Shown here: positions 1 to 20,817 of the stretch, in pieces
Numbering within the stretch: position 1 is the first letter of the stretch
Layout: each line of letters begins with the position of its first letter
Source of the DNA: Nostoc punctiforme PCC 73102
Lineage (GTDB): Bacteria; Cyanobacteriota; Cyanobacteriia; Cyanobacteriales; Nostocaceae
Assembly (NCBI RefSeq): GCF_000020025.1
Contig: NC_010628.1
Coordinates: forward strand, 7,500,001-7,532,000
Direction of reading: 5' to 3'
DNA length: 32,000 bases
Notes under the pieces: generated by a model
Databases searched by the model: none
What the model saw: the letters and a program-made list of their open reading frames with translations, nothing else
Told to the model about the DNA's origin: nothing
Made by a program: the position numbers and the translations under genes

Positions 1-1417
1 CTATTAAAAACCTTAGTACGTAAACACGTTCGATTGGTTCTCTTAATCCTAAAATCTCACAGAACTGTTCAATATATCCTGTGACTTTCATGCCGTACTG
101 TTCTATTATTGAGTCACAGTAAGAAGTAACAGCATTGTAATGATAGTTAGTGTTGTTGACTACTATGAAATCTAATACATCCCTCAAGTCTTCAGTGCGT
201 ATATCAATACCGTTTTCTATACCTAGTGGTATTCTTAATGTATTAGGTGTAACATTTTCACTGTTATATATAAAAGTTTCTTTATACACATCCCATTGTA
301 AATTACCTAAGTCAGCTTCTTTAGTAACGATATCTACTAATGCTTCCATTTTCCCACCTTCATTTTTTACGCTAGATTTGTAAGTACTTTTATCTTTGCC
401 AGCTTTTATACTTTTTTTGATTGTGGTACTTATTTCCTTTTCAGGTAGTCCGGTTTCACTAGCAGCATCGAATAGGCTTTCAAAAGCATCATCTTCATCT
501 ATTACGCCTTCCCTTATTGCTCCACCAGCAATAAAACTGGCTTCATTTAATGTGTTGTTGCGACTACCTTCTGTTGCTTTACTTACTTTGTCTATCTGTT
601 TTTGCAATATTGAAGGTATAGTTTTTTCAGATTCTTGAGCATAAACTTTGGCAGGTATCAAGTCTATTACTTCATTCTGATTTCTGTACCTAACACTAGG
701 ATTACAATACGCAAGCTTAACTAGTTGTGGTTCTCCTTTCCTATGAAAAAATCCAGGTAGACGCATTACACGAGGTAAATCATGTACCTTCTTATCTGAT
801 TCGTAGTGGCTAATAATTGACTGTTGGCTAGATTTGAACTGGTTTAGTTTTTCGTTATCTTCCAATAACCAGTAAATATGTCCTTTTTGTATCCCGTTGA
901 CATTGCTAGTATTTACTATGACTGAAGGTTCTAAGTGACAGTGTTCAGGTAATCCATTCTTGTCACAATCAGCGTATAATGCACGAACATAGGTAATATC
1001 TTCAGTTTTTCGTGTATTGCCTGCTGTCTGATTGATAGTAACAAATATGCCAGCATCTTTATTATTTAATTTAACTAGTTCATTTTTACACTCATCAAAA
1101 GCACCATAGAGTTGTCTAGTTAGACTTTCGTCTTTACGTTTCTCATTATCATCAAAAGTTTGGAATAAAAATTTATATTCCTCAAAGTCTGTGAATAAAT
1201 CATTCCCACATAATGCACTTAAAAACTTTTCAGTATCTTCAAAGTTAAATGATGAGTCAGTACCTATATTTTCTTGATAAAATTCTGTAAATTCGTTATA
1301 ATTAGTAACAGTTGAATTGTTCATTGTTTTCATTGTATTGTCATTTTTTGAGTAGTTCATTTGTTTGAGTTCGCCTGTGTAAGTAAAGGGGTCATTTTCT
1401 CTAGGAAATAGTTTCAT
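1..1417 (-). CDS. Replication protein with a RepB'-type primase/PrimPol-like N-domain, a PriCT-like helical domain and the start of a VirE/D5-helicase-like region. It is partial because the C-terminus runs off the window start.
   Basis: This ORF is not in the ORF track. My translation of the minus strand from ATG 1417 is open to base 1 (472 codons, MKLFPRENDPF...), with GGAG 10 nt upstream. Motifs seen: AGIFVTINQTAGNTRKTEDITYVRALYADCD, DLPRVMRLPGFFHRKG (primase core pattern) and TEGSRNNTLNEASFIAGG (PriCT-like GxRNxxL). I checked the frame at several points. Confidence 0.75.
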   Translation of the reverse strand, partial: MKLFPRENDPFTYTGELKQMNYSKNDNTMKTMNNSTVTNYNEFTEFYQENIGTDSSFNFEDTEKFLSALCGNDLFTDFEEYKFLFQTFDDNEKRKDESLTRQLYGAFDECKNELVKLNNKDAGIFVTINQTAGNTRKTEDITYVRALYADCDKNGLPEHCHLEPSVIVNTSNVNGIQKGHIYWLLEDNEKLNQFKSSQQSIISHYESDKKVHDLPRVMRLPGFFHRKGEPQLVKLAYCNPSVRYRNQNEVIDLIPAKVYAQESEKTIPSILQKQIDKVSKATEGSRNNTLNEASFIAGGAIREGVIDEDDAFESLFDAASETGLPEKEISTTIKKSIKAGKDKSTYKSSVKNEGGKMEALVDIVTKEADLGNLQWDVYKETFIYNSENVTPNTLRIPLGIENGIDIRTEDLRDVLDFIVVNNTNYHYNAVTSYCDSIIEQYGMKVTGYIEQFCEILGLREPIERVYVLRFLI

Positions 1418-1694
1418 TTTGTTTTTTCTCCGTTATTAGTAGTCGATTATTGCCTTTAGTTGTGGTTAGCTGAAGGCTATTTCAATTCGTATAAAATCTG
1501 GTGTAAGGAATGTCATTCGCTCGATTAGAAAACCGTTCGTGCTTGTTCTGAGACGCTGTAATAATATTAAGCACAGCGTTCTTTTTATGAAACCTTGTCC
1601 AGTCTTCTAGCACTTGGTTTAGCTTATGTAATATTCCGGGACAATTCGTTTAGTTTTAGTTATCATAAGTCTTTATAGTGTATTTATTCTGATA

Positions 1695-1718
1695 GGGGAT
1701 AATCAGTACTTTATCCCC
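1695..1718 (-). terminator. Hairpin just downstream of the 1729 stop (8-bp stem ggggataa/ttatcccc).
   Basis: The sequence ggggataa-tcagtact-ttatcccc is seen directly. No clear U-tract follows on the minus strand. Confidence 0.3.
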
Positions 1719-1728
1719 AGTAATTACA

Positions 1729-1926
1729 TTAGCTAGTTACCCTACTAGCAGCTAATCTGTCTCTTAGGTCGTTACGCTGTTCATCGGTTAAATTTTTACG
1801 TTTCCTTTTCAAGTCAGTAGCCTTCCTAAACTCTGAAATAGGTACATTACTGAGTGTCAAATTTCTTTCACCCTCAAATAATTTCAGTTGAGTATATTCA
1901 GGGAATTGCTTTAACCAACTATCCAC
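1729..1926 (-). CDS. Hypothetical 65-aa protein with a basic C-terminus. The gene status is doubtful.
   Basis: ORF track. It has a GTG start and no obvious SD. The frame stays open upstream to a TAA near 1990 without an ATG. Confidence 0.3.
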   Translation of the reverse strand: MDSWLKQFPEYTQLKLFEGERNLTLSNVPISEFRKATDLKRKRKNLTDEQRNDLRDRLAASRVTS

Positions 1927-2002
1927 TGTCCATCGATGATTCGACCAACCAGAGACTAAATTTAGGTCATAATCCCAGGTAACATAAGTTTATGTGGGGT
2001 TT

Positions 2003-2194
2003 TTATCCATTAGGTAATCCCTTAAGGTTTATGTCACCTAAATGTACAAATTTATCATCTCCAAGGACTAAAAAAATCACAATCTTAGTCTCTGGAATGT
2101 TTAAAAGCATACCAACATTCGGATACTCTAATTTTTTAGTTTCCTCCAAAGTTAGGTTCCATTCTGCATTCAATATGATAGGATTTTCTAACAC
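2003..2194 (-). CDS. Hypothetical 63-aa protein, translationally coupled to the upstream RHH gene.
   Basis: Its GTG start overlaps the RHH stop (GTGTTAG). AAGGAG lies 8 nt upstream of the GTG. I recognise no family. Confidence 0.5.
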   Translation of the reverse strand: MLENPIILNAEWNLTLEETKKLEYPNVGMLLNIPETKIVIFLVLGDDKFVHLGDINLKGLPNG

Positions 2195-2370
2195 GCTACT
2201 AACTCCTTAGCAGCTTCCAAAGTTTGTAAGTCAGCATTTTTAATAGACCTTAGACCTATTCTTATCAAATCATTCTGGCTTACTCCTAACCTCCGACTTT
2301 CTACTTTTAACAATTGGTTAGTTTCTTCAGAAAATCTGATACTTCTAACTACTGTTTTATTAATTGTCAT
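2188..2370 (-). CDS. Ribbon-helix-helix (CopG/Arc/MetJ-type) DNA-binding protein, 60 aa.
   Basis: The N-terminal strand VVRSIRFSEE followed by helices NQLLKVESRRLGVSQNDLIRIGL is a typical RHH pattern. It is the first gene of the leftward operon. Confidence 0.7.
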   Translation of the reverse strand: MTINKTVVRSIRFSEETNQLLKVESRRLGVSQNDLIRIGLRSIKNADLQTLEAAKELVAC

Positions 2371-2434
2371 AATCGTGTTACATAAAAACTACTATAATAT
2401 AAATATAGCATGAATAAATGAATTATGAAGAACC

Positions 2435-2848
2435 ATGAACATACAAAATTATTTTATACGTAGACATCAATTTAACAGGATGAAAAGGTCAAGGGTAAAA
2501 ACGAATACTATAGAAAATACGCCGCATATTAATAATGGTGTACCAATCGAAGCTAAACCACAAGTTCAAGGTTTAGAGTACAGTTATAGACCATTATTGA
2601 CTACTTTTGCTTTGATGGCAGTACCTTTATTACCTACAACTAACCTCTATTCAGATGAGCCGCCTACAAGAATTGTTGCATTACGTATCAAGGGAAAAAA
2701 CCAACCTTTGACAGATGACGAAAAGAGAGAATTAAGGGATTTTTACAGTTTTGCGAATCGTAAGAATTTACAGCAACAGAAAGAAGACGATGGTTTTAAA
2801 AAGCAGGTTATTGGGGAGTCTTTTAGAACTGTTAGAAAATTGATTTAA
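2435..2848 (+). CDS. Hypothetical 137-aa protein, divergent from the RHH operon and co-oriented with the integrase relic. It is possibly an element regulator.
   Basis: ORF track. A 64-bp divergent gap holds TATAAT-like boxes and four ATGAA repeats (2410, 2418, 2425, 2435). A strong terminator follows. Confidence 0.5.
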   Translation: MNIQNYFIRRHQFNRMKRSRVKTNTIENTPHINNGVPIEAKPQVQGLEYSYRPLLTTFALMAVPLLPTTNLYSDEPPTRIVALRIKGKNQPLTDDEKRELRDFYSFANRKNLQQQKEDDGFKKQVIGESFRTVRKLI

Positions 2849-2851
2849 ATA

Positions 2852-2879
2852 AAACCCCTAGAGTAGTAGCTAGGGGTTT
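2852..2879 (+). terminator. Rho-independent-type hairpin after the 2435..2848 gene.
   Basis: A perfect 10-bp stem, aaacccctag / ctaggggttt, with an 8-nt loop. Confidence 0.6.
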
Positions 2880-3044
2880 ATCAGTTAGAAAATAATTGAA
2901 AGCTTACCGTAACTTTGCTGAGAAGTTATATCTTTTTCACTATGTCTCAAAATTTCACTGAAAAGAATTTTCTGACCTAATTTTAATGCTATATCGTCTT
3001 GTGCTTCTAATTGAGAGTGTGCGTAACGGTAACTTGCAGCATAA

Positions 3045-3257
3045 AACATTTACACACTCAAAGGAATTTACACACTCAAAGGACTGGTTAGACCCAGGCT
3101 GATTATTAGGAAAGTAAACACCAAGGGAAAACTTGCAACTAGGTCAATTCCAGTGATAGAAGATTTGGCGTAAATACTAAGGAATTATTACCCACTAGCA
3201 AGGGGGGATGACTATCTGTTCCCCGGTTGGGGAGAATGGTGTAGAGCTAGAACTTGA
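3045..3257 (+). pseudogene. Tyrosine recombinase (phage-integrase family) internal fragment. It has an in-frame stop and lacks the catalytic C-terminus.
   Basis: One frame reads YTLKGIYTLKGLVRPRLIIRKVNTKGKLATRSIPVIEDLA*ILRNYYPLARGDDYLFPGWGEWCRART*. The pattern K-x-K-x-x-R-x-IP ... L..Y ... YLFPG is typical of the central part of integrases. There is no start codon and no HxxR or catalytic Tyr downstream. Confidence 0.5.
3048..3083. repeat. Perfect tandem duplication, 2 x 18 bp (atttacacactcaaagga), inside the integrase relic.
   Basis: Seen directly. It is in frame and duplicates the peptide YTLKGI. Confidence 0.95.
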
Positions 3258-3542
3258 TAAAAAGCTAGAAATTGATGCTAATAGTCACCATTAGGGATAA
3301 GTGTTTCTGCACACACAAAAACAACAGTAACTCTTACTCCATATATATTAGAGTCTGCAAAGGCTTTGTTAGTTTGAGTTGAATAATAAAATAGTTAGTT
3401 AGCTGCGGAAATACTTATAAAAATAGACACACTGTAAATAAATATTGCAAATAATACCTTATTGATTTACTAACTTCACTCAAAATGGTAGAAAGCGAGT
3501 TGAAAGTTATTTGTAATTACTAATTATAAGACGTTGGTTTAC

Positions 3543-4184
3543 ATGAAAACATCAGATTGGATTACTATTGCAGGTTGGGTCGTTAGTTTTATTTTAGGTT
3601 TAATTGCTTCATTGATTATACAGAATCGAGCCAAAAAGAAGCAGATAATAGCTTGGTCAGTAGTAGGAGAATCCAATATTATAACTAACGAATCTTTTGG
3701 TGGATTTACTGTACCTATAAAAATATTTGTTAATGGTATAGAAGAAAATAATCTTAGTACAGTAAGAGTGAGGGTAGGAAACAAAGGGAATACAGAAATT
3801 ACAAATATTAGGTTAATATTTAAGTTTGGTAGTAAAGCAAATTTATTTAGTGGAGAATTAGTTCAAAACTTAGGTGCTTATGCAGACTGTCTTCATATCA
3901 ATAATCAGGGTAATTCTGCAACTTTAGACATTGACTATATTAATCATAGTTATTTTTTTGATATAGATTTCCTTGTTGGTAAATATGAAATACGTGATAT
4001 TCATGTTGATATGGCAAAGGCAGGAGTTGAACTTATAAAAACAGAATTTACAAGATGGGACTTAGAATTTACGCAAAGTATTATTGATATTCTTAATTCC
4101 AAAGTCTCTACAATAGACACTACATATATTTTGAAAGATATAGTAAATGAATTATCAAAAATTAGACAAATTATGGATAAATAG
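3543..4184 (+). CDS. Membrane-anchored hypothetical protein with an N-terminal TM helix and a soluble domain of about 180 aa.
   Basis: ORF track (TTG at 3534; ATG at 3543 is the more likely start). The TM segment is WITIAGWVVSFILGLIASLII followed by basic NRAKKKQ. I recognise no family. Confidence 0.6.
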   Translation: MKTSDWITIAGWVVSFILGLIASLIIQNRAKKKQIIAWSVVGESNIITNESFGGFTVPIKIFVNGIEENNLSTVRVRVGNKGNTEITNIRLIFKFGSKANLFSGELVQNLGAYADCLHINNQGNSATLDIDYINHSYFFDIDFLVGKYEIRDIHVDMAKAGVELIKTEFTRWDLEFTQSIIDILNSKVSTIDTTYILKDIVNELSKIRQIMDK

Positions 4185-4396
4185 GATTTAGAAATAGAAT
4201 GATACAATAAATTTTAGGACACACTGAACTAAAGACTAAAATTTGTGACCTAAAGGTGTCAAGTATTGGATAAATAAACGCTTGGGGCGATTATGTCGGG
4301 ATACAGGTATTAGACAACATGAAATCGGAACTAGCTCATAATTAGCAATTACCCCTTGTAGTACACTAACGCGGTAATGCAATTTGCATCTTAATA

Positions 4397-4711
4397 TTAA
4401 TTACTAAACAAAATATTTTTAAGTTCGATAAATAGAACTTCTCTCACGCCCGTTTCTTCAAAAATTCTATACTGACATTCTTTTATTAAATCTATAGTAA
4501 CTGGTATATCTATCTTTTCCCCGTCTTTAGATTTTAAACTTATAGAATCATCGTTAATTTGAATTTCTTTGTCCTCAGATTTAGACAATATTGTATTTAA
4601 TATTTCTTCTAAATTTAAAGGGTTATATGGTAAATGCTCTAAACATTTTTTAAGATGTTCATTATTCCAAAGTTCGGTTTTTCTGGTTTTATAATCATAG
4701 ATGTTCATCAA
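4397..4711 (-). CDS. Hypothetical 104-aa protein.
   Basis: ORF track only. AT-rich island codon usage and no recognisable motif. Confidence 0.45.
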   Translation of the reverse strand: MMNIYDYKTRKTELWNNEHLKKCLEHLPYNPLNLEEILNTILSKSEDKEIQINDDSISLKSKDGEKIDIPVTIDLIKECQYRIFEETGVREVLFIELKNILFSN

Positions 4712-4779
4712 AATTCTGTTGATGTTGTTTATAAGAGTCCCTTAATTCCAGCAATATATCATCAAACATTAACGCTAGT

Positions 4780-4860
4780 TGTCCTCACTGTGGAAGTTCA
4801 AGTTTACTTTACAAATTGACAAAAGATACTAGTGTCTAGATTGTAAAAAATGTATGGCTG
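4780..4860 (+). pseudogene. Possible relic of a transposase-type zinc-ribbon N-terminus.
   Basis: CPHCGSSSLLYKLTKDTSV* is followed in another frame by DCKKCMAASKT. This gives CxxC-(x15)-CxxC only if a stop and a frameshift are ignored. No start codon is present. Confidence 0.25.
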
Positions 4861-4995
4861 CTAGCAAAACTATCTGCAAATAATCATCGATTATAAAGAG
4901 TAACTATGAACTTTAAGTAATCTATAAATAATCTCTATGCCTAATCTTTTTTATTAAGGTAATACTGTATTGTAGATAATTCAAAGTAAGATAAA

Positions 4996-5220
4996 ATGAA
5001 AATCGCTTTTGCAGATGTAAAAATTGGTGATGATTTTACTCATAAATCGTCAGATAGAGTCAGAATAAAACTCTCAAATGAAACTTATGGTTTTAGTATG
5101 TCAAATGCAAAAAATATGCTTGAAAATCAGAAAGATTTTAATAAATTTTTTGAAGCTAGATTAGAATCTGAAACACCACTTGCAGAAACATTGGTAGACG
5201 TTAAAGAACCACTTAAATAA
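4996..5220 (+). CDS. Hypothetical 74-aa protein.
   Basis: ORF track. A terminator hairpin follows at 5245..5271. Confidence 0.5.
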   Translation: MKIAFADVKIGDDFTHKSSDRVRIKLSNETYGFSMSNAKNMLENQKDFNKFFEARLESETPLAETLVDVKEPLK

Positions 5221-5244
5221 CCTTGAAACCACAGATGGAAATAT

Positions 5245-5271
5245 CATCCCAAAATCTCTGGGATGTTTTTT
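5245..5271. terminator. Terminator hairpin between two convergent genes.
   Basis: Stem catccca / tgggatg followed by tttttt. It sits between 4996..5220 (+) and 5275..5433 (-). Confidence 0.6.
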
Positions 5272-5274
5272 ACT

Positions 5275-5433
5275 TTAGTTCTTAGATTTTGCACGTAAAA
5301 TTAATATATTAATAACATCGTATATACCTAATACTAAAATTATCAATACATATAATACAAACAATAGCCTCCATACAAAAAATAAAGTAATACCACCTAT
5401 TATTAAACGAGAAAATGACAAACGTTTAAGCAT
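5275..5433 (-). CDS. Small hydrophobic peptide of 52 aa, below the ORF-track size cutoff.
   Basis: My translation is MLKRLSFSRLIIGGITLFFVWRLLFVLYVLIILVLGIYDVINILILRAKSKN*. It has two predicted hydrophobic segments and an ATG start. Confidence 0.4.
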   Translation of the reverse strand: MLKRLSFSRLIIGGITLFFVWRLLFVLYVLIILVLGIYDVINILILRAKSKN

Positions 5434-5641
5434 ATTTAGATTAAATTTTTAAGCACTTAGAATAAAGTAACATTTTTTAATTATCAATACCGCAGTAATT
5501 ATACTAACCAATTGAAAACTAAAAAGCTATTTAAGGAAATATACTCATGGCAAATTAAACTATTTGCTGTTAGTAAAGATTCATAATAATTTTCCATCTT
5601 ATAGATGGGAATACTAAACTGATATCAATAACGAAGTACCC

Positions 5642-5968
5642 ATGTCTGAAGAAATTGCAAAAAGATTACCTTCTGAAATCGAAAAACAATTACCTCCCTG
5701 GTTTGCCTCTAGACTTTTAGATGAAGAATCTTACTACGGCTTACTTACAACTAGTGGCACAATTATTGGAATTAGTGAGATAAGGAAATTTAGCCAGATG
5801 GCTGATGGGTCTATCTGGATGGATGTACTTTTAATAGGAGAAAAGCTACCAGATAATCTTTGCTCTGAGATACCATACTTGGTAACTAAATCTGGATACA
5901 CATCAGCAACAATTAATGTAAGTCAAATCATTGCTGCTTTTGATTTAGGGCATCACCAAGAAAATTAA
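5642..5968 (+). CDS. Hypothetical 108-aa protein.
   Basis: ORF track. A hairpin (agaggt/acctct followed by tttt) lies about 40 nt downstream. Confidence 0.5.
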   Translation: MSEEIAKRLPSEIEKQLPPWFASRLLDEESYYGLLTTSGTIIGISEIRKFSQMADGSIWMDVLLIGEKLPDNLCSEIPYLVTKSGYTSATINVSQIIAAFDLGHHQEN

Positions 5969-6242
5969 AAGTATCTATTAGAGCTAGTTTACAACGTTTG
6001 TAAGAGAGGTCTGACCACCTCTTTTACAGCAAATAGTTACTTACTATGCTCTTTACTTTGGATGTTTCCAGCAAATAGGCAACACCCAAAGGAAGGAATT
6101 TTACAGCTTTAAACGACATCGAAGTAAAAACATCTACGATTGAGTATTTAGCACCTGATTATGATGAGAATATTGACTGTGAGGAATTTAGAGAATATAT
6201 TGTTGTTAACAATGTTGCTCTTATTAGAAATTGTCCTAAAAA

Positions 6243-6593
6243 ATGTCTACGCATAACCCCAAACATCATACTATCGACTTAGATGGAACCATCATTTTAC
6301 ATTCTAAACACTTAGAAAAAATTGTAGAAGTTCACATAAATAAGGAAAAACGACGTTTTTACGGTATAAAGAAAGATGGTTCTGTGATAGAAGATGATGG
6401 TGATTGTGGAAATGATTTTGCTCAACCAGTGATGCTTTATAAAATCTTCTATTGCTTTGAGAATGACACTTGGGGAGTAGGATATCGAATTAAAAATAAG
6501 AAAGTAAGTAAGTGGATAGATGGTTTTAAAACAGCTAGAGAAGCTTGGTTATATAGAGAAGCATTAATTGCTGGTGATATAGCTGAAAGATAG
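6243..6593 (+). CDS. Hypothetical 116-aa protein.
   Basis: ORF track. The C-terminal WGVGYRIKNKKVSKWIDGFKTAREAWLYREALIAG faintly resembles an AP2-like DNA-binding fold, which is weak evidence. An A6 run at the start codon adjoins an upstream open frame. Confidence 0.5.
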   Translation: MSTHNPKHHTIDLDGTIILHSKHLEKIVEVHINKEKRRFYGIKKDGSVIEDDGDCGNDFAQPVMLYKIFYCFENDTWGVGYRIKNKKVSKWIDGFKTAREAWLYREALIAGDIAER

Positions 6594-6922
6594 ATAATTG
6601 TTACTCACCGTTTACGTCTACAGCATTACTCTATCTAGAACGTTCATTATAGATTCTAACTTATGAAAATGACATGATACTTGAAACAAAAAACAAACGC
6701 TGTATAGCTCAACCTAAGAGGAGTTGTTTACTTGAGGATAGCTGCTACCAAAGTTATAGCAGATTTACCTTACATCTTATATTTCATAGTTGTAGTCGTT
6801 AAATAACGCATGGAAAGTAGAAATTAGACATTTTCTAACAGTTATGTCTTCTTATTAATTAGGAGTCCCGTTTCCTTTAGATTCCCTAACAAGCATAAAA
6901 AGTTGGATGAATATATACTCAA

Positions 6923-7244
6923 GTATGTAAGGTATGCAATAACTTGCATACCAAGTGTGCATTATCTGTATCTAGGTGATGTTGGTTTTCTAACGCAAAA
7001 GTACCTACGTAATATTTCGCATAGATTTACGTTTGTTTATACATAAAATAAAAGTATGCAAAATTGAGTTTTTATAATTAGTTAAAATAATAAATTTTTA
7101 AGTTTTAAATGGCTTTAGTGATAATTAGATAAAGGTTTCTTATTTTATATTAAAATCTTATAAATAAATTTAATATGCAACTTCTATGCAACTATGCTGC
7201 TTTGACACGATACTGGTAGAGTACACCTCAGTTATGCAAATAAC
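6923..7244. repeat. Cluster of TATGCAA motifs, including a perfect inverted pair, in the noncoding island end next to tRNA-Pro.
   Basis: Palindrome ggtatgcaa-taac-ttgcatacc at 6931..6952. Further copies at 6923 (gtatgtaa), 7054, 7173, 7184 and 7232 (ttatgcaaataac). Confidence 0.6.
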
Positions 7245-7289
7245 TAAAGACTGTTGAGATATAAGCACTCTAATAGTCAGTGCTTATTG

Positions 7290-7324
7290 AAAAACCTGCT
7301 AGTCATTTTAAAAAGACTAGCAGG
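7290..7324 (-). terminator. Rho-independent terminator downstream of tRNA-Pro.
   Basis: A 10-bp stem, cctgctagtc / gactagcagg, is followed on the minus strand by TTTTT. A second hairpin (aagcact/agtgctt) lies at 7263..7285. Confidence 0.6.
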
Positions 7325-7340
7325 CATGGCTTATCATCAA

Positions 7341-7414
7341 TCGGAGCGGCGGGATTCGAACCCACGACCTCCACTACCCCAAAGTGGCGCGCTACCAAGC
7401 TGCGCTACGCCCCG
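7341..7414 (-). tRNA. tRNA-Pro, anticodon GGG.
   Basis: Manual cloverleaf: CGGGGCG TA GCGC AGCTTGGTA GCGC G CCACT TTGGGGT AGTGG AGGTC GTGGG TTCGAAT CCCGC CGCTCCG A. All stems pair and CCA is not encoded. Confidence 0.93.
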
Positions 7415-7464
7415 GTCAGAATTACCATCATATAGCAATACTCTTAGATAATCAAGAGGCTCAT

Positions 7465-7830
7465 TTAAAAAACTTTAAGCATCCCAGCAGCTTGCAATAA
7501 ATCTGGAACAGCAGAAGCACTCCATTTACCTTCTACACATCGCCCTGTATTCAAAATGAAGCACAGACTGTAATCATGAGGATAGCCTTCTACCTCCATC
7601 CATAATAAATCGCTTTCGGCTTCACAAGCAATTTTTTCCTCTTCCATTAATTCCGTTGCGAGTTGCTTCATGGTGTCTGCTAACTGTGCTAGTAGACGGC
7701 AAAAATCATTCAACTCAGCTTCGGTTAACTCAATTGCCCAATCATCTGTACCGACTAAACCTTTAAATTCAGGTGCATCGGGATTCCAGCCAATACGCCA
7801 ACCAAATCCGGTTTTTACAACGCGTTCCAT
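7465..7830 (-). CDS. Conserved cyanobacterial hypothetical protein, 121 aa. From memory it may be DUF1818-like, which is unverified.
   Basis: ORF track. Native-like composition. Confidence 0.65.
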   Translation of the reverse strand: MERVVKTGFGWRIGWNPDAPEFKGLVGTDDWAIELTEAELNDFCRLLAQLADTMKQLATELMEEEKIACEAESDLLWMEVEGYPHDYSLCFILNTGRCVEGKWSASAVPDLLQAAGMLKVF

Positions 7831-7900
7831 AATTAGTTAAAAGTGAGGAGTTATAAGTTAGGAATTATGAATTTACAACTTATAACTCCTAAATTTCCCA

Positions 7901-8509
7901 CTATCTAAGTAGTTCAGCACCTCCTCGTTGGGGTGGCTGTGGGGTAGTTGATCTACTCGGACTGGGTGCGGTATTCGGTTTAGGAGATAGGGTATTTTGG
8001 GAAGTAGGATTAAATATGTTGACTAAGACTTGCACTAGGGCATCTCGCTGACTGCGGGTAAGACGGGTTATGGCTTTGCGATCGCCTTCCATAGGGTTTT
8101 CCCGTAGTGAATCATAGCCTGGATAGGTAGTATCATACATAATTTCATTCGCCCCCAGGTAATCAGCTAAAGTCAGCTTCCAATCTAAGCGATAAATTGG
8201 GGCCCGCCCTTTAGTATAAATGTGATATCTAATCAGGCGATTTGCCAGGGTGCTGTTTTCTGCAACTTTCCCATTTTCTTTGCTGATATACTTGTTTTCT
8301 CGTGGGAAATCTGGCAATTGCTGGTACACCAACTGCCAAACATCACTAGGTGTTATTCTCTGAGCATAAGCAGGTTGGATACTAAACAAACTTGGGTATA
8401 TTGATTTGCCCGCCCCTGAACTCAAAGCAATTACACCCACTACCATTAAGGCAGTGAGTGTTTGCCAGGGCTTGAGTAGGGGTTGAATGAACGATTGATG
8501 TTTGCTCAT
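7901..8509 (-). CDS. Hypothetical exported or membrane-anchored protein, 202 aa.
   Basis: N-terminal hydrophobic segment LTALMVVGVIALSSGAG with AYAQ, which looks like a signal peptide. The C-terminal tail is Pro/Ser/Thr-rich. A HIP1 site lies inside the gene. Confidence 0.65.
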   Translation of the reverse strand: MSKHQSFIQPLLKPWQTLTALMVVGVIALSSGAGKSIYPSLFSIQPAYAQRITPSDVWQLVYQQLPDFPRENKYISKENGKVAENSTLANRLIRYHIYTKGRAPIYRLDWKLTLADYLGANEIMYDTTYPGYDSLRENPMEGDRKAITRLTRSQRDALVQVLVNIFNPTSQNTLSPKPNTAPSPSRSTTPQPPQRGGAELLR

Positions 8510-9405: not shown

Positions 9406-10854
9406 GATGCAGCCACTGCGTGCGGGAAGAGTTAATGACAATTGCTGAGTTCCTTCTTCACCATTCCACTCAGCTTCAGCAGTACCATATAACAGCTTGT
9501 TGGGTTGAGTATGCAAACTAGCCACATCTACATTTGCGGTTGCCGAACTTGTGCCAGCGTTTATAGCAATTATCAATTCTTCTGTGCCTAAAGTTCGTGC
9601 AAAGAGATAAAGTTGCCCTTGAGCATAGAGGACTTGGTAATCACCTGTACGCAAGGCTGGGTATGTTTGGCGGATGGTAATTAATTGACGATGAGTATTG
9701 AAAATTTCTTGATTCCAGTTAGCCTCTAAAGGAAAGCCACGCCTTGAGTCGGGATCTATGCCACCAGGTAAACCGACTTCATCACCATAGTAAATGCTGG
9801 GGGCACCGGGAAAGGTGAGTAACAGTAAAGTCGATAATTCTACACTCGCTATATCACCGCCTGCAATGGTCATCAATCGGGCTGTATCGTGACTTGCTAA
9901 CAAATTGAGTTGAGTTAGCTGAATTTCCCAAGGGTAAAGTTGCAGTACTTCTTGGATTTTGGTGGCGTACTCGGCAGCAAATAAGGGTGGGTAGGGTTGA
10001 TAGTCGCGGCTTTGGACTTGTTCTAAGACTACGCGATCGCCAGCTGCAAAAGCAATTGTCGGCCCAGCAAATAAATAATTCATTACGCCGTCAAATTGCG
10101 TTCCATCCAACCACTGGCGGGAATCTCCCCACACTTCGCCCACAATATATGCTTCGGGATTGATGGCTTTAGTGCGATCGCGGAATTCCTGCCAAAAACC
10201 CGGAGTTTTTATTTCAAATGGGACATCTAATCGCCAACCGTCGATGCCGAATTTAAGCCAATATTCGGCAATTTCCATAATATATTCTCGTACTTCTGGA
10301 TTATCGTGGTTAAATTCTGGCAAGGCGCGATTTCCCGCCCAACCCACGTAGTTTGCAGGGAATTCACCGTTATAAGGTGAAAGGGGCCAGCCTTCTATTT
10401 TGAACCAATTTACCCAAGGTGAATGGGGGCCATTTTCTAAAACGTCGTGGAAAAAGAAAAAGCCACGGCTGGAATGGTTAAACACCCCATCCAGAACGAC
10501 TTTGATATTCCGTTGATGGGCTGCATCAAGCAATTCTTTAAAAGCCTCGTTGCCCCCTAACATCGGGTCAACTTGATAATAATCGTGGGTATGATAGCGG
10601 TGATTACTGGCGGATTGAAAGATGGGTGTGAAATAAATCGCGTTAATCCCCAAATTCTGGATGTAGTCTAAATCCTCCATGATGCCCCATAAATCCCCAC
10701 CTTTATAACCCTGGAGGGTTGGCATAGAGTCCCAATCTTCCCAACGGGCTTCTTGCAATAACCGTTTGCGCGGCTGTTTGCTTCTGGCAAAGCGATCTGG
10801 GAAAATTTGGTAGAAAACAGCGTGCTTTACCCAATCTGGTGTTTGAATTTGCAT
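9388..10854 (-). CDS. GH13 alpha-amylase-family glycosidase (neopullulanase/cyclomaltodextrinase-like).
   Basis: 488 aa. Motifs: VFYQIFPDRFA, VVLDGVFNHSS, GIDGWRLDVPFE, YIVGEVWGD, LLASHDT (GH13 conserved regions I-IV). Confidence 0.9.
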   Translation of the reverse strand: MQIQTPDWVKHAVFYQIFPDRFARSKQPRKRLLQEARWEDWDSMPTLQGYKGGDLWGIMEDLDYIQNLGINAIYFTPIFQSASNHRYHTHDYYQVDPMLGGNEAFKELLDAAHQRNIKVVLDGVFNHSSRGFFFFHDVLENGPHSPWVNWFKIEGWPLSPYNGEFPANYVGWAGNRALPEFNHDNPEVREYIMEIAEYWLKFGIDGWRLDVPFEIKTPGFWQEFRDRTKAINPEAYIVGEVWGDSRQWLDGTQFDGVMNYLFAGPTIAFAAGDRVVLEQVQSRDYQPYPPLFAAEYATKIQEVLQLYPWEIQLTQLNLLASHDTARLMTIAGGDIASVELSTLLLLTFPGAPSIYYGDEVGLPGGIDPDSRRGFPLEANWNQEIFNTHRQLITIRQTYPALRTGDYQVLYAQGQLYLFARTLGTEELIIAINAGTSSATANVDVASLHTQPNKLLYGTAEAEWNGEEGTQQLSLTLPARSGCILGTGD

Positions 10855-11017
10855 GAATAACTTTTTGTACGTTCAGAAGCGATCGTTGCAAATATTAGCT
10901 TCTTTATGACTCTTACTTATGATAGAGAATCTGTAATTTGCCAGTAGTCAGTAGAAATTTATACCAATTTAACAATTTTGGCTACAGGACTCATCTTTGG
11001 ATTTTTGCGAAGCTAGG

Positions 11018-11063
11018 TACAACTCAAAGAGCCTTCTTGCCTATTGCCCATCGCGCTTCGCCC
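11018..11063. repeat. Dispersed repeat, copy A. Copy B is at 29013..29062.
   Basis: gtacaactcaaagagccttcttgcctattgcccatcgcgcttcgccc aligns with gtacaacttgaaaagcgttcttgcctgttgcctgccatcgcgcttgcgc. Both copies are intergenic. Confidence 0.7.
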
Positions 11064-11522
11064 ACAGAAATCAAAACATATTAGTATACAACTTGTTAGT
11101 ATTTAATATTTCTTAAAATTATCTTTTTTATTTATTACTTAATTATTCTTAATTTTATTTTTTTAACTTTGTCCGTAATGATTTAGGCAGATAGTGGATT
11201 AGTTTAATAGCTCCATAAAAATTACCTCTTAGCTCAGTCTTGGGTAATTCTGAGATGCGTCTGCTCAAAGATATCTCATAAGTACAGAAAATCACTCACT
11301 ATTAGGAGACATAATTCAGGGATATGAGTTATGAATTAGCAATTGTCTTAGGAATTACTTGCCGCCTCCTAAGCTTATTTGATGTTATCTATAAAAAAAT
11401 AGATAACTATAGTCGCATCAAATAATCAAGGCGAAAAAACTGCATAGTCTGCATTAATGCCAGAGCGACTTATGCTAATAAACTACTTTGCTTTCATCCA
11501 ATAAATTGAATTTGAGGTAAAA

Positions 11523-13250
11523 ATGAGGCACGAAAAACTTTCTCCCGGATTACTGTTGGCATTTCAAGACTATCAAAATGAGGGAGATAAAGCTTTAGTT
11601 ACACATAAGCGATCACTTGGCATCATTGCCCACAAAAGCCCAGTCAAGCCAACAAAGAGCGTCGTTTTTATCTATTGCGATCCTGATGCAGACTTGAGTT
11701 ATTTATCACAATATAACATTGAAGTCAATCAAAACTCTGGGAGTGTGCGGACGGCTTTTTTACCGATAGAAAGTTTAGATGTCTTATCTGAAGAAGATGT
11801 TATCCAACGCATCAAGCCGTCACGCAAACTTCATTTGAGGATGGACACTGCAATGGGAGCAGTTAAACTCCCAGAGTTCCAGAACAAAACTGGACTGACT
11901 GGTAAAGGAGTAATCATCGGCATTATAGACAGTGGCATCGATCCGAAACACCCCGCTTTTGCTGGACGAATTTTACACATTTGGGATCAAACACTGCCAG
12001 GACCAGGAGTAACGGAGGGTGGCTATGGGGCGGAATTTACGGGGGCGCAACTGACAATTTCTCAGGATACTGGCGGTCATGGTACTCATGTTGCCGGAAT
12101 TGCCGCCGGTGCCGATGCTAGCTATGGCGGTGTAGCACCAGAAGCAGAATTAATTGTTGTCAGGTCAGATTTACAGGATGCCCATATTGCTGATGGTGTG
12201 CGTTATATTTTCCGAATTGCTAGAGAGTTAGGACGCGCAGCCGTAGTAAATCTCAGCTTGGGTGGACACGCTGATGCCCATGATGGTAGTGATTCCTTAT
12301 CCAAAGTTATTGATGCGGAAACTGGCCCTGGAAGAATAGTTTGCTGTGCTGCCGGTAACGAAGGAAACGATAACATTCATGGACAAGCGATAATACCCAG
12401 TGGACGCACTCGTGGTATGCGCTTTAATGTTCCTTTGAATCAAATAGGTATAGTTTGGTTAAACGCCTGGTATTCCAAAGACAGCGAATTAGAAGTCTCA
12501 GTACGGAGTCCTAACGGTTTTGTCACCCCCTTCCAAAAAATAATTACTGACGGTAATGCCGCACAAGATTACCAGTTACCAGATGCAAGGGTGCAATTGG
12601 CGACACCAGCGCCAGATAAAGCCAATGGCGATCATAATTTCTTTGTGCAAATCCGGGGTATTGACCCCTCGCCAGTTATGGGAGGTGTTTGGCAGCTACG
12701 AGTTCGCAACAGTTCTGCAACTGACACACGTTTAGATGTATGGACATTAGATGACACTTCGTCAGTGTTCTTTACTGGTAAAAGTGTGAAAGATACGCTA
12801 AAAATTGGTTCACCAGGTGCCGCTAGCAGTGCAATTACAGTTGCCGCCTATACTACTAAAACCAAGTACACAGATATTGATAACCAAGTGCGAGAAATGG
12901 GGTTAGAATTGCATACTATTTCGGAATTCAGTAGTGAAGGGCCTCTACGGAATGATTCACACAAGCCGGATGTCGCAGCACCAGGAGCGATGATTATTTC
13001 CACTCTTTCCGCCGATGCAAATTTTGACCGCTCATCGATGATTAATTCCAAGTTTGTGGTGCAGGCTGGTACGAGTATGGCAACACCATTTGTTAGTGGG
13101 TTAGTAGCATTACTATTGCAGCGAGATCCGAATCTCGAGCCGACTGCTGTGAAAGACTTGCTACGTAAAAATAGTGCAATTCCTGGAAAACCCGCAGGGA
13201 CATTTGATGAGAAATGGGGTTATGGAGTGATTAACGCTTTAAATCTGTAA
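11523..13250 (+). CDS. Subtilisin-like serine peptidase (MEROPS S8) with an N-terminal domain of about 105 aa.
   Basis: The Asp/His/Ser triad motifs are IGIIDSGID, GHGTHVAG and GTSMATPFVSG. No obvious signal peptide. Confidence 0.9.
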   Translation: MRHEKLSPGLLLAFQDYQNEGDKALVTHKRSLGIIAHKSPVKPTKSVVFIYCDPDADLSYLSQYNIEVNQNSGSVRTAFLPIESLDVLSEEDVIQRIKPSRKLHLRMDTAMGAVKLPEFQNKTGLTGKGVIIGIIDSGIDPKHPAFAGRILHIWDQTLPGPGVTEGGYGAEFTGAQLTISQDTGGHGTHVAGIAAGADASYGGVAPEAELIVVRSDLQDAHIADGVRYIFRIARELGRAAVVNLSLGGHADAHDGSDSLSKVIDAETGPGRIVCCAAGNEGNDNIHGQAIIPSGRTRGMRFNVPLNQIGIVWLNAWYSKDSELEVSVRSPNGFVTPFQKIITDGNAAQDYQLPDARVQLATPAPDKANGDHNFFVQIRGIDPSPVMGGVWQLRVRNSSATDTRLDVWTLDDTSSVFFTGKSVKDTLKIGSPGAASSAITVAAYTTKTKYTDIDNQVREMGLELHTISEFSSEGPLRNDSHKPDVAAPGAMIISTLSADANFDRSSMINSKFVVQAGTSMATPFVSGLVALLLQRDPNLEPTAVKDLLRKNSAIPGKPAGTFDEKWGYGVINALNL

Positions 13251-15480: not shown

Positions 15481-15754
15481 CATGCCCCATACCCAATGGT
15501 AGATTTCTTTGGAGATAGTACTAGCCCTAAAATACACAAGTGATTAATCTTTCTACATAAAACTTAATATTTACCAATTTTAGCCAAATATCCTCTCAGG
15601 GATTGCTCTGGGAGGGTTTGTGCTATTGTTTTAAAAATCTAATCGATGGATGATGCTTGATTATTATTAACAAAACCTATGAATAGGCTCTACCCTTTGG
15701 TAGATTTAACATTGACAATAAATTGTTTTATACAATACGTAGATTATACGGACA

Positions 15755-16216
15755 ATGCCCCAGGTCGTTTTAGTTAACCCACAAATTCCTCCTAATACAG
15801 GTAATATTGCTCGTACTTGTGCAGCAACAGGTACAGAATTGCATTTGGTAGGGCCCTTGGGGTTTGAAATTAGCGATCGCTACCTCAAAAGAGCCGGTTT
15901 GGATTACTGGCCTTATGTCAAACTCCACTATCACGAATCCCTAGAAGCCTTTAAAACCGTACATCAAGAGCGTGGAGGCAGATGGTTGGGTTATACCGTT
16001 GGTGGTAATTTTAGTTACGTCAGCTTTCGATATCAAGCCGATGATTGGCTACTATTTGGTAGTGAAACTACGGGCTTACCACCAACAATTTTGTCAGATT
16101 GCGATGCTACTCTGTATATTCCCATGAGCCAACCAGGGGTTCGCAGCTTGAACTTGTCAGTCAGTGTGGCAATTGGCTTATTTGAAACCCGTCGTCAGTT
16201 AGGCTATCTACAATAG
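15755..16216 (+). CDS. trmL: tRNA (cytidine/uridine-2'-O)-methyltransferase TrmL (SpoU family).
   Basis: 153 aa. VVLVNPQIPPNTGNIARTCAATGTELHLVGPLGF and LNLSVSVAIGLFE are SPOUT knot motifs. Confidence 0.85.
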   Translation: MPQVVLVNPQIPPNTGNIARTCAATGTELHLVGPLGFEISDRYLKRAGLDYWPYVKLHYHESLEAFKTVHQERGGRWLGYTVGGNFSYVSFRYQADDWLLFGSETTGLPPTILSDCDATLYIPMSQPGVRSLNLSVSVAIGLFETRRQLGYLQ

Positions 16217-16944
16217 TTGTTTACCTTCACTAGATAAGTATATTTACTTATTAACTCTAAAAAAATCTATCTAAACTGGAGAATTTTGGTAGCAAGATTT
16301 TTTTGTTTACGGCAAAATATGTAAAAGAATATACCAAATCCTGGGTTTATTCGCCAATTGTAGTGGAAGATACTTACAAAGAGAGGAAGGTTATTATAAG
16401 AAATTTATATATAAAACTTGAGATAATGCCAAATTTGAATGATAGATTTTGATGAATTTGAAGCATCCTAAATCGGGAACAAAAACGCTAAAATCCAGTC
16501 ATGTTATGTATTTAAGCTGTTTTTGCTCGATGAACTCCAAAAAGCAGCCTAAAATTAGACGATAGTTAATACGGTTGTTTTTTAGGGAATAATCAACGTA
16601 AAGTCTCGTGTTGAGAAGACTGATGGGCTAGAAATATCTTGAAGATATCTACAGCAGGGGGCATCACTTTTCCAGAAGTCGCAGCAATTTATTTTTCGGC
16701 AGCGACTATAGACTAGGCAAATCATTTGTCTAGTCCCCGTGATTGACGCAAGACAAGCGCGGATAATGGTAAAGAGTTATAAACGTCCTAAGTGGTGTTA
16801 GGAGTGGTTCGGACAAGTAAACACAGCAAACTTTAAGTTTTGCTAATACATGTAAACTTGTCTAAATCAGAGAAGCAGGTTAATCTTGCGTAAGCATCTC
16901 TGGTGAATGTGATCTTGATCTATCATTTGTTGTGATCTAAATCA

Positions 16945-19514: not shown

Positions 19515-19588
19515 GGCTCAGTAGCTCAGTTGGTTAGAGCGCGGGACTCATAAGCCTGAGGTCGTTGGTTCAATTCCAACCTGAGCCA
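19515..19588 (+). tRNA. tRNA with anticodon CAT. It is either tRNA-Met or a lysidine-type tRNA-Ile2, which cannot be distinguished by eye.
   Basis: GGCTCAG TA GCTC AGTTGGTTA GAGC G CGGGA CTCATAA GCCTG AGGTC GTTGG TTCAATT CCAAC CTGAGCC A. There is one A:G mismatch at the bottom of the anticodon stem. Confidence 0.88.
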
Positions 19589-19792
19589 CTTTAAAAGAAG
19601 GATTATATAAGGGTTTCAGCTTCTAGTCATCTGTAGCATTAGGGAGCTGAATTTTAATATAAGGCTCTTTTAACTATCAAATGACTATGCTTATTTAAGA
19701 ACGTGATAGCCATGAAAGTTTGAATTGAAGCCTTGAAAGGTCGTTTAAGATGAAGATTCCCTAGACTTTTGTTCAATGGTAATCAGAAATAC

Positions 19793-20115
19793 TTATCTTT
19801 GAACTTTATCCTGATCCTGTTGGATTTGCTCGGCTCGGTCTTGGGCAATTCTGGTGATATTAGGCTGAGTTGAGAACCAGTAACCAGTGTTATCGACATA
19901 AAGATAGATGTGTGGGCTGTTCGGTAAGTCGGCGCAAAGCATCGCCAAAAGTTGCTGCACTTTCCCCTGGTTGAACACACCCCAACTTGATCTGATGATC
20001 TTCTACACCGCGATTGGCTGCTCTTAGAGTAGGAGCAGAACCAAGGTAAAATTGTCCGGGCGACACGACGACATGCAGAGTAACGTCCTAAGTTCGGGTT
20101 TTGGCGATCGCACAA
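19793..20115 (-). pseudogene. Frameshifted remnant of an unidentified gene.
   Basis: Three overlapping partial frames, for example DVTLHVVVSPGQFYLGSAPTLRAANRGVEDHQIKLG... and ...FNQGKVQQLLAMLCADLPNSPHIYLYVDNTGYWF... No single frame is intact. Confidence 0.35.
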
Positions 20116-20259
20116 AGTCGAGCCTCTGAGGATTTCTGCTAAGGAGTTAGTTTAGTACTGTGATTGCTCTCACCAAAAGCATCCCTTTTTACTTGGATAA
20201 CTAGCTATCCAATAAAGTAGTCAGACTTAAGAGCGAATACTCTGACAAAATTGCGATGT

Positions 20260-20345
20260 CTACGATGGTCACTGAGCTTGTCGTACCCCTCCGGGGAAGC
20301 AAGCTACGCGCAGCGTCTCGTAGAGAAGTGCGGGCTACGCCTACG
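20260..20345. repeat. Small dispersed repeat modules (Nostoc SDR/MITE-like).
   Basis: cactgagcttgtcg (20270..20283) recurs at 23147..23160. cgcgcagcgtctcgtagagaag (20307..20328) recurs inverted at 23025..23046 with one mismatch. GCTACGCC motifs also occur. Confidence 0.7.
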
Positions 20346-20430
20346 CACCAAAAAACAATCAGCAAATGAAGTAAACCTGTAGCAGTTATTCTAGAGAAAA
20401 CTAGAGTTTTGAAATTTTGGTATATTTGAG

Positions 20431-20817
20431 CTACCCAAAATCATCAGAGAATAATGGCACATCATAAAATTTCAACTTTTGGTCTACTGTAATTATTGTT
20501 AAACCTTCTACCAAAGCTTGAGCAATTAACATCCTATCAAAAGGATCTTTATGGTGTAGAGGCAAATCAGCAACCTTTATTCCATGTGTCAATGTCATAG
20601 ACAAAATCTCAAACCGACTGAAGCGCAAAGCCTCCTCCAAATTACCAGGAGAAATTAACTTTCCTAAAGACTGTTTAATTGAAATCTCCCAAGCACTAAT
20701 TGCACTGACGAAAATTAAATTTTCAGGATTAGTAATTACTTCTCGTACCCGATCTGACAATTTAGAATCATTTTCTAAAAACCACAATAAAATATGAGTA
20801 TCTAACAAAAAACTCAC
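20431..20817 (-). CDS. vapC: PIN-domain toxin, VapC family.
   Basis: 128 aa. The N-terminal LLDTHILLW carries the acidic residue, and the remainder shows the PIN pattern. A 1-nt overlap links it to the upstream antitoxin gene. Confidence 0.85.
   Translation of the reverse strand: MSFLLDTHILLWFLENDSKLSDRVREVITNPENLIFVSAISAWEISIKQSLGKLISPGNLEEALRFSRFEILSMTLTHGIKVADLPLHHKDPFDRMLIAQALVEGLTIITVDQKLKFYDVPLFSDDFG

Follow-up and report, generated by a model that had tools for sequence, protein, structure and literature searches.

A probable integrative mobile element at the tRNA-Pro(GGG) gene of Nostoc punctiforme PCC 73102

An AT-rich block beside tRNA-Pro(GGG)

We analysed a 32,000-nt stretch of the Nostoc punctiforme PCC 73102 chromosome (NC_010628.1, positions 7,500,001 to 7,532,000), hereafter the window, the left end of which is an AT-rich block that abuts a tRNA-Pro(GGG) gene and that we examine here as part of a mobile element. 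Coordinates are window positions unless the contig L002, described below, is named. The G+C fraction was 0.317 in 1-7283 and 0.423 in 7415-32000, and the tetranucleotide correlation of 5-kb segments to the host was 0.80-0.83 for the island against 0.92-0.955 for host DNA. The HIP1 motif (GCGATCGC) occurred 20 times in the window (0.11 expected by chance), always at position 8078 or beyond; at the host density of 0.81/kb the island should hold 5.9 copies, and the count of 0 in 1-8077 has a Poisson P(0) of 0.003. Period-7 tandem arrays were found four times outside the island and never inside it, a difference that is not significant on its own. The initial annotation, made from the sequence alone, had described positions 1 to about 7290 as an AT-rich block free of HIP1 and of short tandemly repeated repetitive (STRR) heptamers, and these measurements bear it out. 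Its statement that the block ends at the 3′ end of tRNA-Pro stands in so far as the block abuts that gene, but needs correction for the last 57 nt: the terminator is also carried by empty sites in relatives and by the repeat of a related element (see below), so that 7284-7340 is a native terminator copy and element-specific DNA starts at 7283. The tRNA was the sole Rfam match in the window, and L002 gave none. To its right lie host genes that are syntenic in other Nostoc genomes and encode DUF1818, a 202-aa protein, RpoZ and a fasciclin protein.

The features of the block are listed here with the evidence for each; L087 (a Nostoc metagenome-assembled genome), L088 (Nostoc FACHB-133) and L118 are contigs that carry related elements.

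1-1417, continuing left of the window, minus strand: first 472 codons of a 761-aa fused primase and VapE-type superfamily 3 (SF3) initiator-helicase (Pri-Rep); RepB_primase and PHROG 10514, and VapE on the full protein
1729-1926, minus strand: 65-aa open reading frame (ORF) of the leftward operon; gene call on Logan contigs, conserved with L087, no family match
2003-2194, minus strand: 63-aa ORF overlapping the next gene by 7 nt and translationally coupled to it; ORF call and conservation in L087, no family match
2188-2370, minus strand: 60-aa ribbon-helix-helix (RHH) regulator of CopG/Arc type, first in the leftward operon; Pfam, PHROG and Foldseek
2371-2434, no strand: control region of 64 bp from which the RHH operon and the 137-aa gene diverge, inside a block conserved in L087, L088 and L118
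2435-2848, plus strand: orphan protein of 137 aa, its gene divergent from that of the RHH protein; kept in every close relative, no family match
2885-3049, minus strand: 54-aa C-terminal remnant of a ResT/TelK-type (telomere-resolvase-like) tyrosine recombinase; tblastn against L118
3048-3083, no strand: perfect 18-bp tandem duplication (TTACACACTCAAAGGA(A/C)T region), repeat family D19; TRF score 72, 100% match
3090-3250, plus strand: possible stop-interrupted fragment of a P4-type integrase; weak, phmmer only
3534-4184, plus strand: 216-aa protein (annotated as 213 aa, ACC84355) with an N-terminal hydrophobic helix; no family match
4397-5968, mixed strands: small ORFs of 104 aa (minus), 74 aa (plus), 52 aa (minus) and 108 aa (plus); no family matches
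6243-6593, plus strand: 116-aa protein whose C-terminus weakly resembles an integrase arm/AP2-type DNA-binding domain; Arm-DNA-bind_4, E=0.0011, below the cut-off
6933-7239, no strand: six TATGCAA/TTGCATA copies, candidate arm-type integrase sites of the tRNA-proximal arm; clustering near att, conservation in L088
7284-7388, minus strand: attL identity block, tRNA-Pro anticodon stem to 3′ end plus 57 nt with the terminator hairpin; far repeat on L002, double copy in L088, single copy at empty sites
7341-7414, minus strand: tRNA-Pro(GGG), integration target, rebuilt by the att copy of the element; ARAGORN, and Rfam tRNA at 61.7 bits

The gene order first proposed was upheld, namely the RHH gene, the overlapping 63-aa ORF, the 65-aa ORF and a primase gene running off base 1, separated by the 64-bp gap from the 137-aa gene.

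Insertion site, integrase and replicon

A 10,309-bp contig, L002, was reached through the RHH protein. It lies in reverse orientation (window coordinate = 7348 minus L002 coordinate) and is 100% identical to window 1-7347. Leftward of the window it carries the rest of the 761-aa gene, an 800-bp non-coding stretch, the gene of a 409-aa integrase and, at its edge, a repeat of the tRNA half; an array of ten copies of ACCTGCAC also lies left of base 1. The last 30 nt of this far edge (CGCCACTTTGGGGTAGTGGAGGTCGTGGGT) equal tRNA-Pro positions 27-56 and run to the contig end, and the other end begins 7 nt inside the tRNA 3′ end. Since L002 thus ends on both sides in tRNA copies, it spans the element from att to att, and the unit measures about 10.3 kb. 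Proteins identical to the 761-aa and 409-aa products are on record on the N. punctiforme chromosome. The exact integrase sequence is that of ACC84353, numbered beside the cargo proteins ACC84355-84357, which places the integrase at this locus of the N. punctiforme genome. Left of the window we would accordingly expect the integrase ACC84353, then CGCCACTTTGGGGTAGTGG...CCGA and then host DNA.

The att block could be delimited here to 105 nt. In Nostoc FACHB-133 a 107-nt block (tRNA positions 25-74 plus 57 nt with the terminator) is present twice with one mismatch. Empty sites were found in Nostoc UHCC 0252 (L090) and Nostoc DSM 114161 (L091), where DUF1818, tRNA-Pro and the terminator hairpin are followed by ordinary genes of normal composition and a single copy of the tRNA/terminator block is retained; the AT-rich block is thus not a constant neighbour of tRNA-Pro in related genomes. 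An intact tyrosine recombinase, a direct repeat of the tRNA 3′ half whose far copy lies on the L002 edge (tRNA 27-56), and empty sites in two relatives are together what distinguishes tRNA-targeting integrative elements, and they agree with the initial annotation of a tRNA-Pro-targeting tyrosine-integrase element with a regulator/pri-rep core. All three checks that this annotation had set for its own refutation spoke for it. Because the element carries the tRNA from anticodon stem to 3′ end together with the terminator, insertion would rebuild the full tRNA and leave a partial copy at the far side. The attP junction of an excised circle is predicted to read ...GGGCTTATA-[att]-...AATAAGCACTGACTATTAG; an att-junction pattern for the excised circle and further att sites gave no match in JGI metagenomes.

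The integrase gene occupies L002 9014-10243, about 1.7-2.9 kb left of window base 1, and its product matched Phage_integrase (5.9e-15) and Arm-DNA-bind_2. Alignment to XerD showed that Arg I, the beta-hairpin Lys, Arg II and the Tyr nucleophile are all kept, and R254, K286, Y357, R360 and Y392 are invariant across 23 family members of 26-98% identity. The relatives found were all cyanobacterial and mostly from Nostocales. Compared with the FACHB-133 copy, the synonymous divergence (dS) was 0.06 and the ratio of nonsynonymous to synonymous divergence (dN/dS) 0.13, which shows purifying selection on the integrase. The motif TTGCATA occurs eight times in the 10.3-kb element (2.4 expected), of which six fall in the 420 bp next to the proximal att and two in the 100 bp next to the distal att, and the 9.8 kb between them has none; five of the six proximal copies are kept in L088. 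These repeats are candidate arm-type sites for the arm-binding domain of the integrase.

The window fragment of Pri-Rep matched RepB_primase at 24.9 bits (cut-off 24.3) and PHROG 10514, a DNA primase family, at 2e-22. The full protein (L002 and P0001) matched VapE-like_dom (PF05272, VapE/VirE-like) at 1.6e-59 and, weakly, DUF5906, and the sole solved-structure match of its helicase half was the complex of SaPI1 Rep1 with DNA (PDB 7PDS, E=4.9e-18), SaPI standing for Staphylococcus aureus pathogenicity island. Of the primase/PriCT/helicase-like gene first described, the primase part was confirmed by the RepB_primase match to the 1-1417 product; no PriCT profile matched at E<=0.1, and the VapE domain lies mostly outside the window. 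The iteron ACCTGCAC was found ten times in the 360 bp of L002 8225-8585 (0.21 expected) and nowhere else in L002 or the window. The array begins 9 nt past the Pri-Rep stop codon and consists of three copies (two of them reversed), a stretch of 74% AT and then seven forward copies. It is kept in L087, L088 and L118 as well, four elements in all, and its copy number varies by 74-bp units. SaPI origins have 6-12 iterons immediately 3′ of rep, in opposite orientations flanking an AT-rich centre, and pri and rep are fused in some SaPIs (PMC9371898); the iteron layout found here agrees with that origin. These comparisons speak strongly for a replicon that works in the manner of the SaPI one. They are no evidence for a satellite lifestyle. 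Proteins of VapE type also occur in many phages and on cyanobacterial plasmids. Full-length relatives of Pri-Rep are few, and those with a named source are from Nostoc; a scan of genome-contig alignments gave one distant Nostoc match (32%) and many unrelated RepB-primase islands.

Between the iterons and int lies a 215-nt non-coding block (L002 8586-8800, about 1.24-1.45 kb left of base 1) that is 97-100% identical in three elements, the primase genes of which are 75-80% identical and one of which has an unrelated integrase. It folds better than its shuffles on one strand (z -3.4), and Rfam gave no match.

Regulators, recombinase remnants and cargo in a mosaic family

The assignment of the 60-aa protein draws on three weak but concordant lines: profile matches (Pfam RHH_3, E=0.054; NikA-like, E=0.068), a PHROG annotated as transcriptional regulator (E=0.001), and an AlphaFold2 (AF2) model of pLDDT 72 for which the top Foldseek matches were all CopG, Arc or ParG. 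It therefore appears, on soft but coherent evidence, to be a CopG/Arc-type RHH protein. The AlpA/HTH_17 profile was unmatched, and the element has instead this RHH protein and the orphan 137-aa protein, for which an exhaustive search of 1.84 billion representatives returned seven homologues; we infer that the latter is a candidate maintenance regulator. A hairpin terminator follows its gene at about 2855-2880. A promoter scan returned 34 sites where 35 are expected, and in DNA this rich in AT it carried no information.

Beyond the 137-aa gene lies a breakpoint. The 54-aa remnant is 80% identical (tblastn E=2e-21) to the C-terminus of an intact 380-aa protein of L118 (L118 273-1415) that carries the ResT/TelK catalytic domain (PF16684, 1.2e-17, 64.5 bits). 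Homology with L088 and L118 stops at L002 4302, that is window 3046, which coincides with the truncation of the remnant and with the 18-bp duplication; the latter marks the switch from the conserved regulatory block to strain-specific cargo. A tyrosine-recombinase relic had been called earlier at 3045-3257 on the plus strand. The well-supported relic is that on the minus strand at 2885-3049. The plus-strand peptide (...TKGKLATRSIPVIEDLA*ILRNYYPLARGDDYLFPGWGEW) matched no Pfam family, and five family integrases found nothing there by tblastn against the window; in a phmmer search against the 2,789 ORFs of the fetched loci its best E value was 0.0099, and the top five matches all fell in the same VPL...FPG segment of P4-type integrases. 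A plus-strand integrase relic is thus plausible but weak. Taken together, the two remnants suggest that the cargo side was gained by fusion with, or deletion against, another element.

The ORFs of 216, 104, 74, 52, 108 and 116 aa gave nothing usable in Pfam, PHROGs, PADLOC or NCBIfam. The stretch 4397-5968 is not shared with L088 save for an inverted piece of 69% identity. The AF2 model of the 116-aa protein, at pLDDT 48 too poor for a structure search, has three strands and then a helix in residues 65-114. We take the 3.05-7.28 kb stretch to be exchangeable cargo.

Comparison with relatives indicates how the modules have moved. L088 is a 13.2-kb element at the same tRNA-Pro site, AT-rich and HIP1-free, with Peptidase_M50 beyond it. 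The int/att module, one contiguous piece in the circular form, is 96.5% identical between the two, the regulatory block 88% and the primase gene 75.5%, while the cargo is unrelated; in the tRNA-proximal arm identity is 93% over the first 480 bp and 86% over 741 bp. The primase genes differ by a dS of about 1 (dN/dS 0.21) and the integrase genes by 0.06, so that the integration module was shared recently between old, diverged replicons. The element of L087, also present on L001, has the same regulators, a Pri-Rep of 74% identity and the iterons, and lies at tRNA-Arg(CCG) with a 48-nt repeat and an unrelated 478-aa integrase.

Conversely, integrases 71-74% identical to that of N. punctiforme were found in Tolypothrix FACHB-123 (L135 9880-17521) and on an ENA/JGI contig (L136 10001-16501), where they pair with a different replicase, Prim-Pol + AAA_25, of 756-766 aa. 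The target of the Tolypothrix element is tRNA-Thr(GGT), and its 50-nt repeat starts at tRNA position 23. These pairings show that replicases, and not integrases alone, have been swapped in the family. The relatives measure 7.6-13.2 kb and have the same core, and structural genes were found in none.

Several further observations concern these relatives. Where the target can be identified, integrases 71-98% identical sit at different tRNAs, tRNA-Pro(GGG) here and in FACHB-133 and tRNA-Thr(GGT) in Tolypothrix, and att identity starts in the anticodon stem at each identified target. L087 1965-8037 and L001 548-6620 hold a complete Type I restriction-modification (R-M) system (HsdM, HsdS, HsdR) in the cargo position. 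L089 (Nostoc CENA543-like), with a Pri-Rep of 41% identity, has a NUMOD4/HNH_3 endonuclease between int and Pri-Rep (1609-2085) and a second tyrosine recombinase beyond. L118 joins the RHH/Pri-Rep/iteron core to its intact ResT/TelK-type gene, with no integrase or tRNA in its 9.8 kb, and the ResT/TelK protein has a 55% identical homologue on plasmid6 of Fischerella sp. NIES-4106 (AP018304.1, 24.6 kb).

That plasmid is deposited as circular, which says nothing on linearity. A search for a telomere-resolution palindrome in L118 gave just a 14-bp hairpin upstream of the ResT/TelK gene.

Nature of the element and rival explanations

We conclude that window 1-7388 is very probably the tRNA-proximal 7.4 kb of an integrative, self-replicating mobile element of about 10.3 kb, inserted in the 3′ half of tRNA-Pro(GGG), and by its sequence the element looks intact. 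The integrase, acting on the TTGCATA arm sites, would excise it as a circle and integrate it at tRNA-Pro. Pri-Rep would bind the iterons, melt the AT-rich core, load itself and replicate the circle, as the SaPI Rep proteins do, and the RHH operon and the 137-aa gene divergent from it would together set the quiescent or the induced state. No relaxase, coupling protein or type IV secretion gene was found in Pfam or NCBIfam, and the NikA-like match of the RHH protein is weak (E=0.068); since no visible transfer machinery is encoded, movement from cell to cell must depend on something else. Of the proposed routes we rank capture in phage capsids highest, vesicles or free DNA next and conjugative mobilisation lowest.

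Several points weigh against this conclusion. It was on the identical contig L002, and not on the window's own continuation, that integrase, iterons and far att copy were read; neither a circular junction nor an emptied site was seen for N. punctiforme itself; and no excisionase was recognised in the element. The two internal recombinase remnants show that it was rearranged, and the roles given to the 137-aa protein and to the cargo are guesses. In the integrase, Tyr replaces the His of H-x-x-R and a third His/Trp is missing, a family-wide state; because the Tyr is invariant, and no third His/Trp is conserved, in the whole cyanobacterial integrase clade, these odd residues are a clade signature and not decay.

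Four other explanations were considered. In the proposal made at first, decay had reduced the integrase of the island to a relic and so locked the island in place. The internal fragments at 2885-3049 and perhaps 3090-3250 would fit decay, as would the failure to find an excisionase or to observe an excision product, but just outside the window lie a full-length integrase of 409 aa (on record as ACC84353, with its invariant residues kept and under selection at dN/dS 0.13), arm sites and both att copies. Moreover, an int-att module 96.5% identical between strains whose primase genes differ at dS of about 1 points to recent exchange of a working module, and we regard a locked island as improbable. 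It is very improbable that a larger prophage lost its structural genes and left this locus as its remnant: integrase, primase/helicase and small regulators are indeed an early-region prophage set, and VapE-type helicases are common in phages, but the att copies enclose just about 10.3 kb, the relatives repeat the same core in 7.6-13.2 kb with no structural gene, and no similarity to phage records was found.

The two remaining explanations concern what kind of mobile element this is. In a true phage satellite, of the kind of the phage-inducible chromosomal islands (PICIs), the element would be quiescent until induced by a Nostoc phage, excise, replicate from the iterons and be packaged in the capsids of this helper, possibly protecting the population. 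The size and the sequence of int, divergent regulators, fused pri-rep and downstream iteron origin are the SaPI/PICI backbone, relatives carry defence cargo (Type I R-M), and marine VEIMEs (integrative mobile elements that are encapsidated in virions) show that a satellite may be devoid of capsid genes (PMC9618062). We nevertheless consider a satellite rather unlikely. No terS, capsid, portal, Ppi/Cpm/Sid-like or AlpA-type gene was found at E<=0.1 in Pfam and PHROGs, though orphan ORFs could hide them; a DNA search against 50,697 phage records gave no similarity; relatives in IMG/VR were distant only (primase domain <=45%, integrase <=30%); the VapE-type Rep is found in phages and ordinary cyanobacterial plasmids alike; and no helper phage is known. 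A plasmid origin is a possibility we hold tentatively. On this account the RHH/Pri-Rep/iteron replicon is a small cyanobacterial plasmid with alternative maintenance modules, either tRNA-specific integrases or a ResT/TelK-type resolvase, that is mostly integrated and is moved by mobilisation or transformation. A CopG-like RHH gene upstream of rep is the classic copy-control layout of plasmids, VapE Rep homologues (about 30% identity) lie on plasmids of 5.8-55 kb in Cyanobacterium, Nostoc and Phormidium, and the intact ResT/TelK-like gene joined to the same core in L118, its homologue on the Fischerella plasmid and the remnant in the window would all fit. On the other hand, a free plasmid form of the element was not seen, no relaxase or oriT was recognised beside the weak NikA match, and a plasmid lineage overlaps with the integrative, self-replicating element that we favour rather than excluding it.

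Quite unlikely, in our estimation, is a broader proposal, according to which the Nostoc elements are the counterpart, in filamentous heterocystous cyanobacteria, of phage satellites or tycheposons, with a SaPI-type replicon shuffled among maintenance modules and ferrying anti-phage or other cargo in borrowed capsids or vesicles. In that proposal the modules are the integrases for tRNA-Pro or tRNA-Arg and, in L118, the ResT/TelK-type resolvase, which might give a hairpin-ended linear form; the integrase family also pairs with another replicase at tRNA-Thr.

Likeness to known systems and significance

On present evidence the element is a mobile island of an ordinary kind, and by analogy it appears to work, in integration and replication, like a SaPI/PICI or a cargo tycheposon. 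The earlier expression "satellite-like or tycheposon-like" seems a fair description of its architecture. With the SaPIs and PICIs (SaPI1, SaPI5) it shares a size of 10-15 kb, site-specific integration by a tyrosine integrase, regulators that diverge, a primase with a self-loading SF3 Rep helicase either fused to it or encoded next to it (the 7PDS match given above) and iterons 3′ of rep. It thus has the int, the regulators and the pri-rep with iteron origin of a PICI, and lacks genes for packaging or redirecting capsids: it differs from them in that no terS, no gene for capsid morphogenesis or interference and no regulator of the Stl or AlpA type was recognised, in the position of the integrase at the far end from the regulators, in its tRNA target and in its heterocystous cyanobacterial host.

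Tycheposons, described from Prochlorococcus and further marine bacteria (bioRxiv 10.1101/2020.12.28.424599), likewise have a complete tRNA at one end and part of a tRNA at the other, encode a tyrosine recombinase and a primase/helicase hallmark that includes the VirE (VapE) type, swap their integration and replication modules, and carry a cargo module that varies. Both the full and partial tRNA flanks and the replication hallmark (PF05272 at 1.6e-59 with RepB_primase) are present here. The differences are that the Nostoc host is freshwater or terrestrial, that the cargo is not made of nutrient-uptake operons, and that the element stands alone and not at the edge of a large accreted island.

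VEIMEs are likewise small integrase and primase/helicase elements with mostly orphan genes, no major capsid gene and, in some, R-M cargo. They are, however, defined by concatemers inside virions, whereas the Nostoc element is known here from sequence alone. Satellite P4 also has a tRNA-targeting integrase and a single large primase-helicase (the alpha protein) with its own iteron-type origin, to which the weak match to DUF5906 (D5/P4-type helicase) may be compared; it differs in that no psu, delta, sid or epsilon gene was matched in the element (Pfam, PHROGs), which has a primase domain of RepB type instead of P4 type, and an RHH regulator. Small cyanobacterial plasmids (5.8 kb in Cyanobacterium aponinum; the 55-kb NC_003273 in Nostoc PCC 7120) have a VapE-domain helicase as their likely Rep, about 30% identical over the helicase half, but they are free, have no integrase/att module and do not share the primase domain. 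An intact telomere resolvase, the feature of N15-type linear plasmid-prophages (protelomerase replicons), is absent from the element, in which the last 54 codons are left, and present in L118.

Small integrase and replicase islands are known from staphylococci, enterobacteria and marine picocyanobacteria. In the searchable literature we found no description of such an island in Nostocales and no paper on this one. Its parts (the 105-nt att block, the candidate arm sites, the integrase, Pri-Rep and the 360-bp iteron origin) are now delimited in a model strain, PCC 73102, and excision, replication and transfer are therefore directly testable. Two tools might come of them: a system that integrates DNA site-specifically at tRNA-Pro, and a compact replicon for genetic work in Nostoc. 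Within the family, int/att, replicase and cargo (a Type I R-M system among it) are cleanly swapped as modules. If the element were indeed a satellite, phage parasitism of this kind would extend to heterocystous cyanobacteria.

Elsewhere in the window, 1-kb stretches with a G+C fraction of 0.35-0.37 lie at 10501-12000, 15501-17000 and 29501-31000, in surrounding host DNA of 0.42-0.48. At 19515-21095 a tRNA-Met gene is followed by a PIN toxin/antitoxin pair, with a local dip in G+C. In Nostoc UHCC 0252 (L090 980-2226) a 72-aa Arm-DNA-bind_2 fragment lies between the PIN pair and tRNA-Met, and may be the trace of another integrative element.

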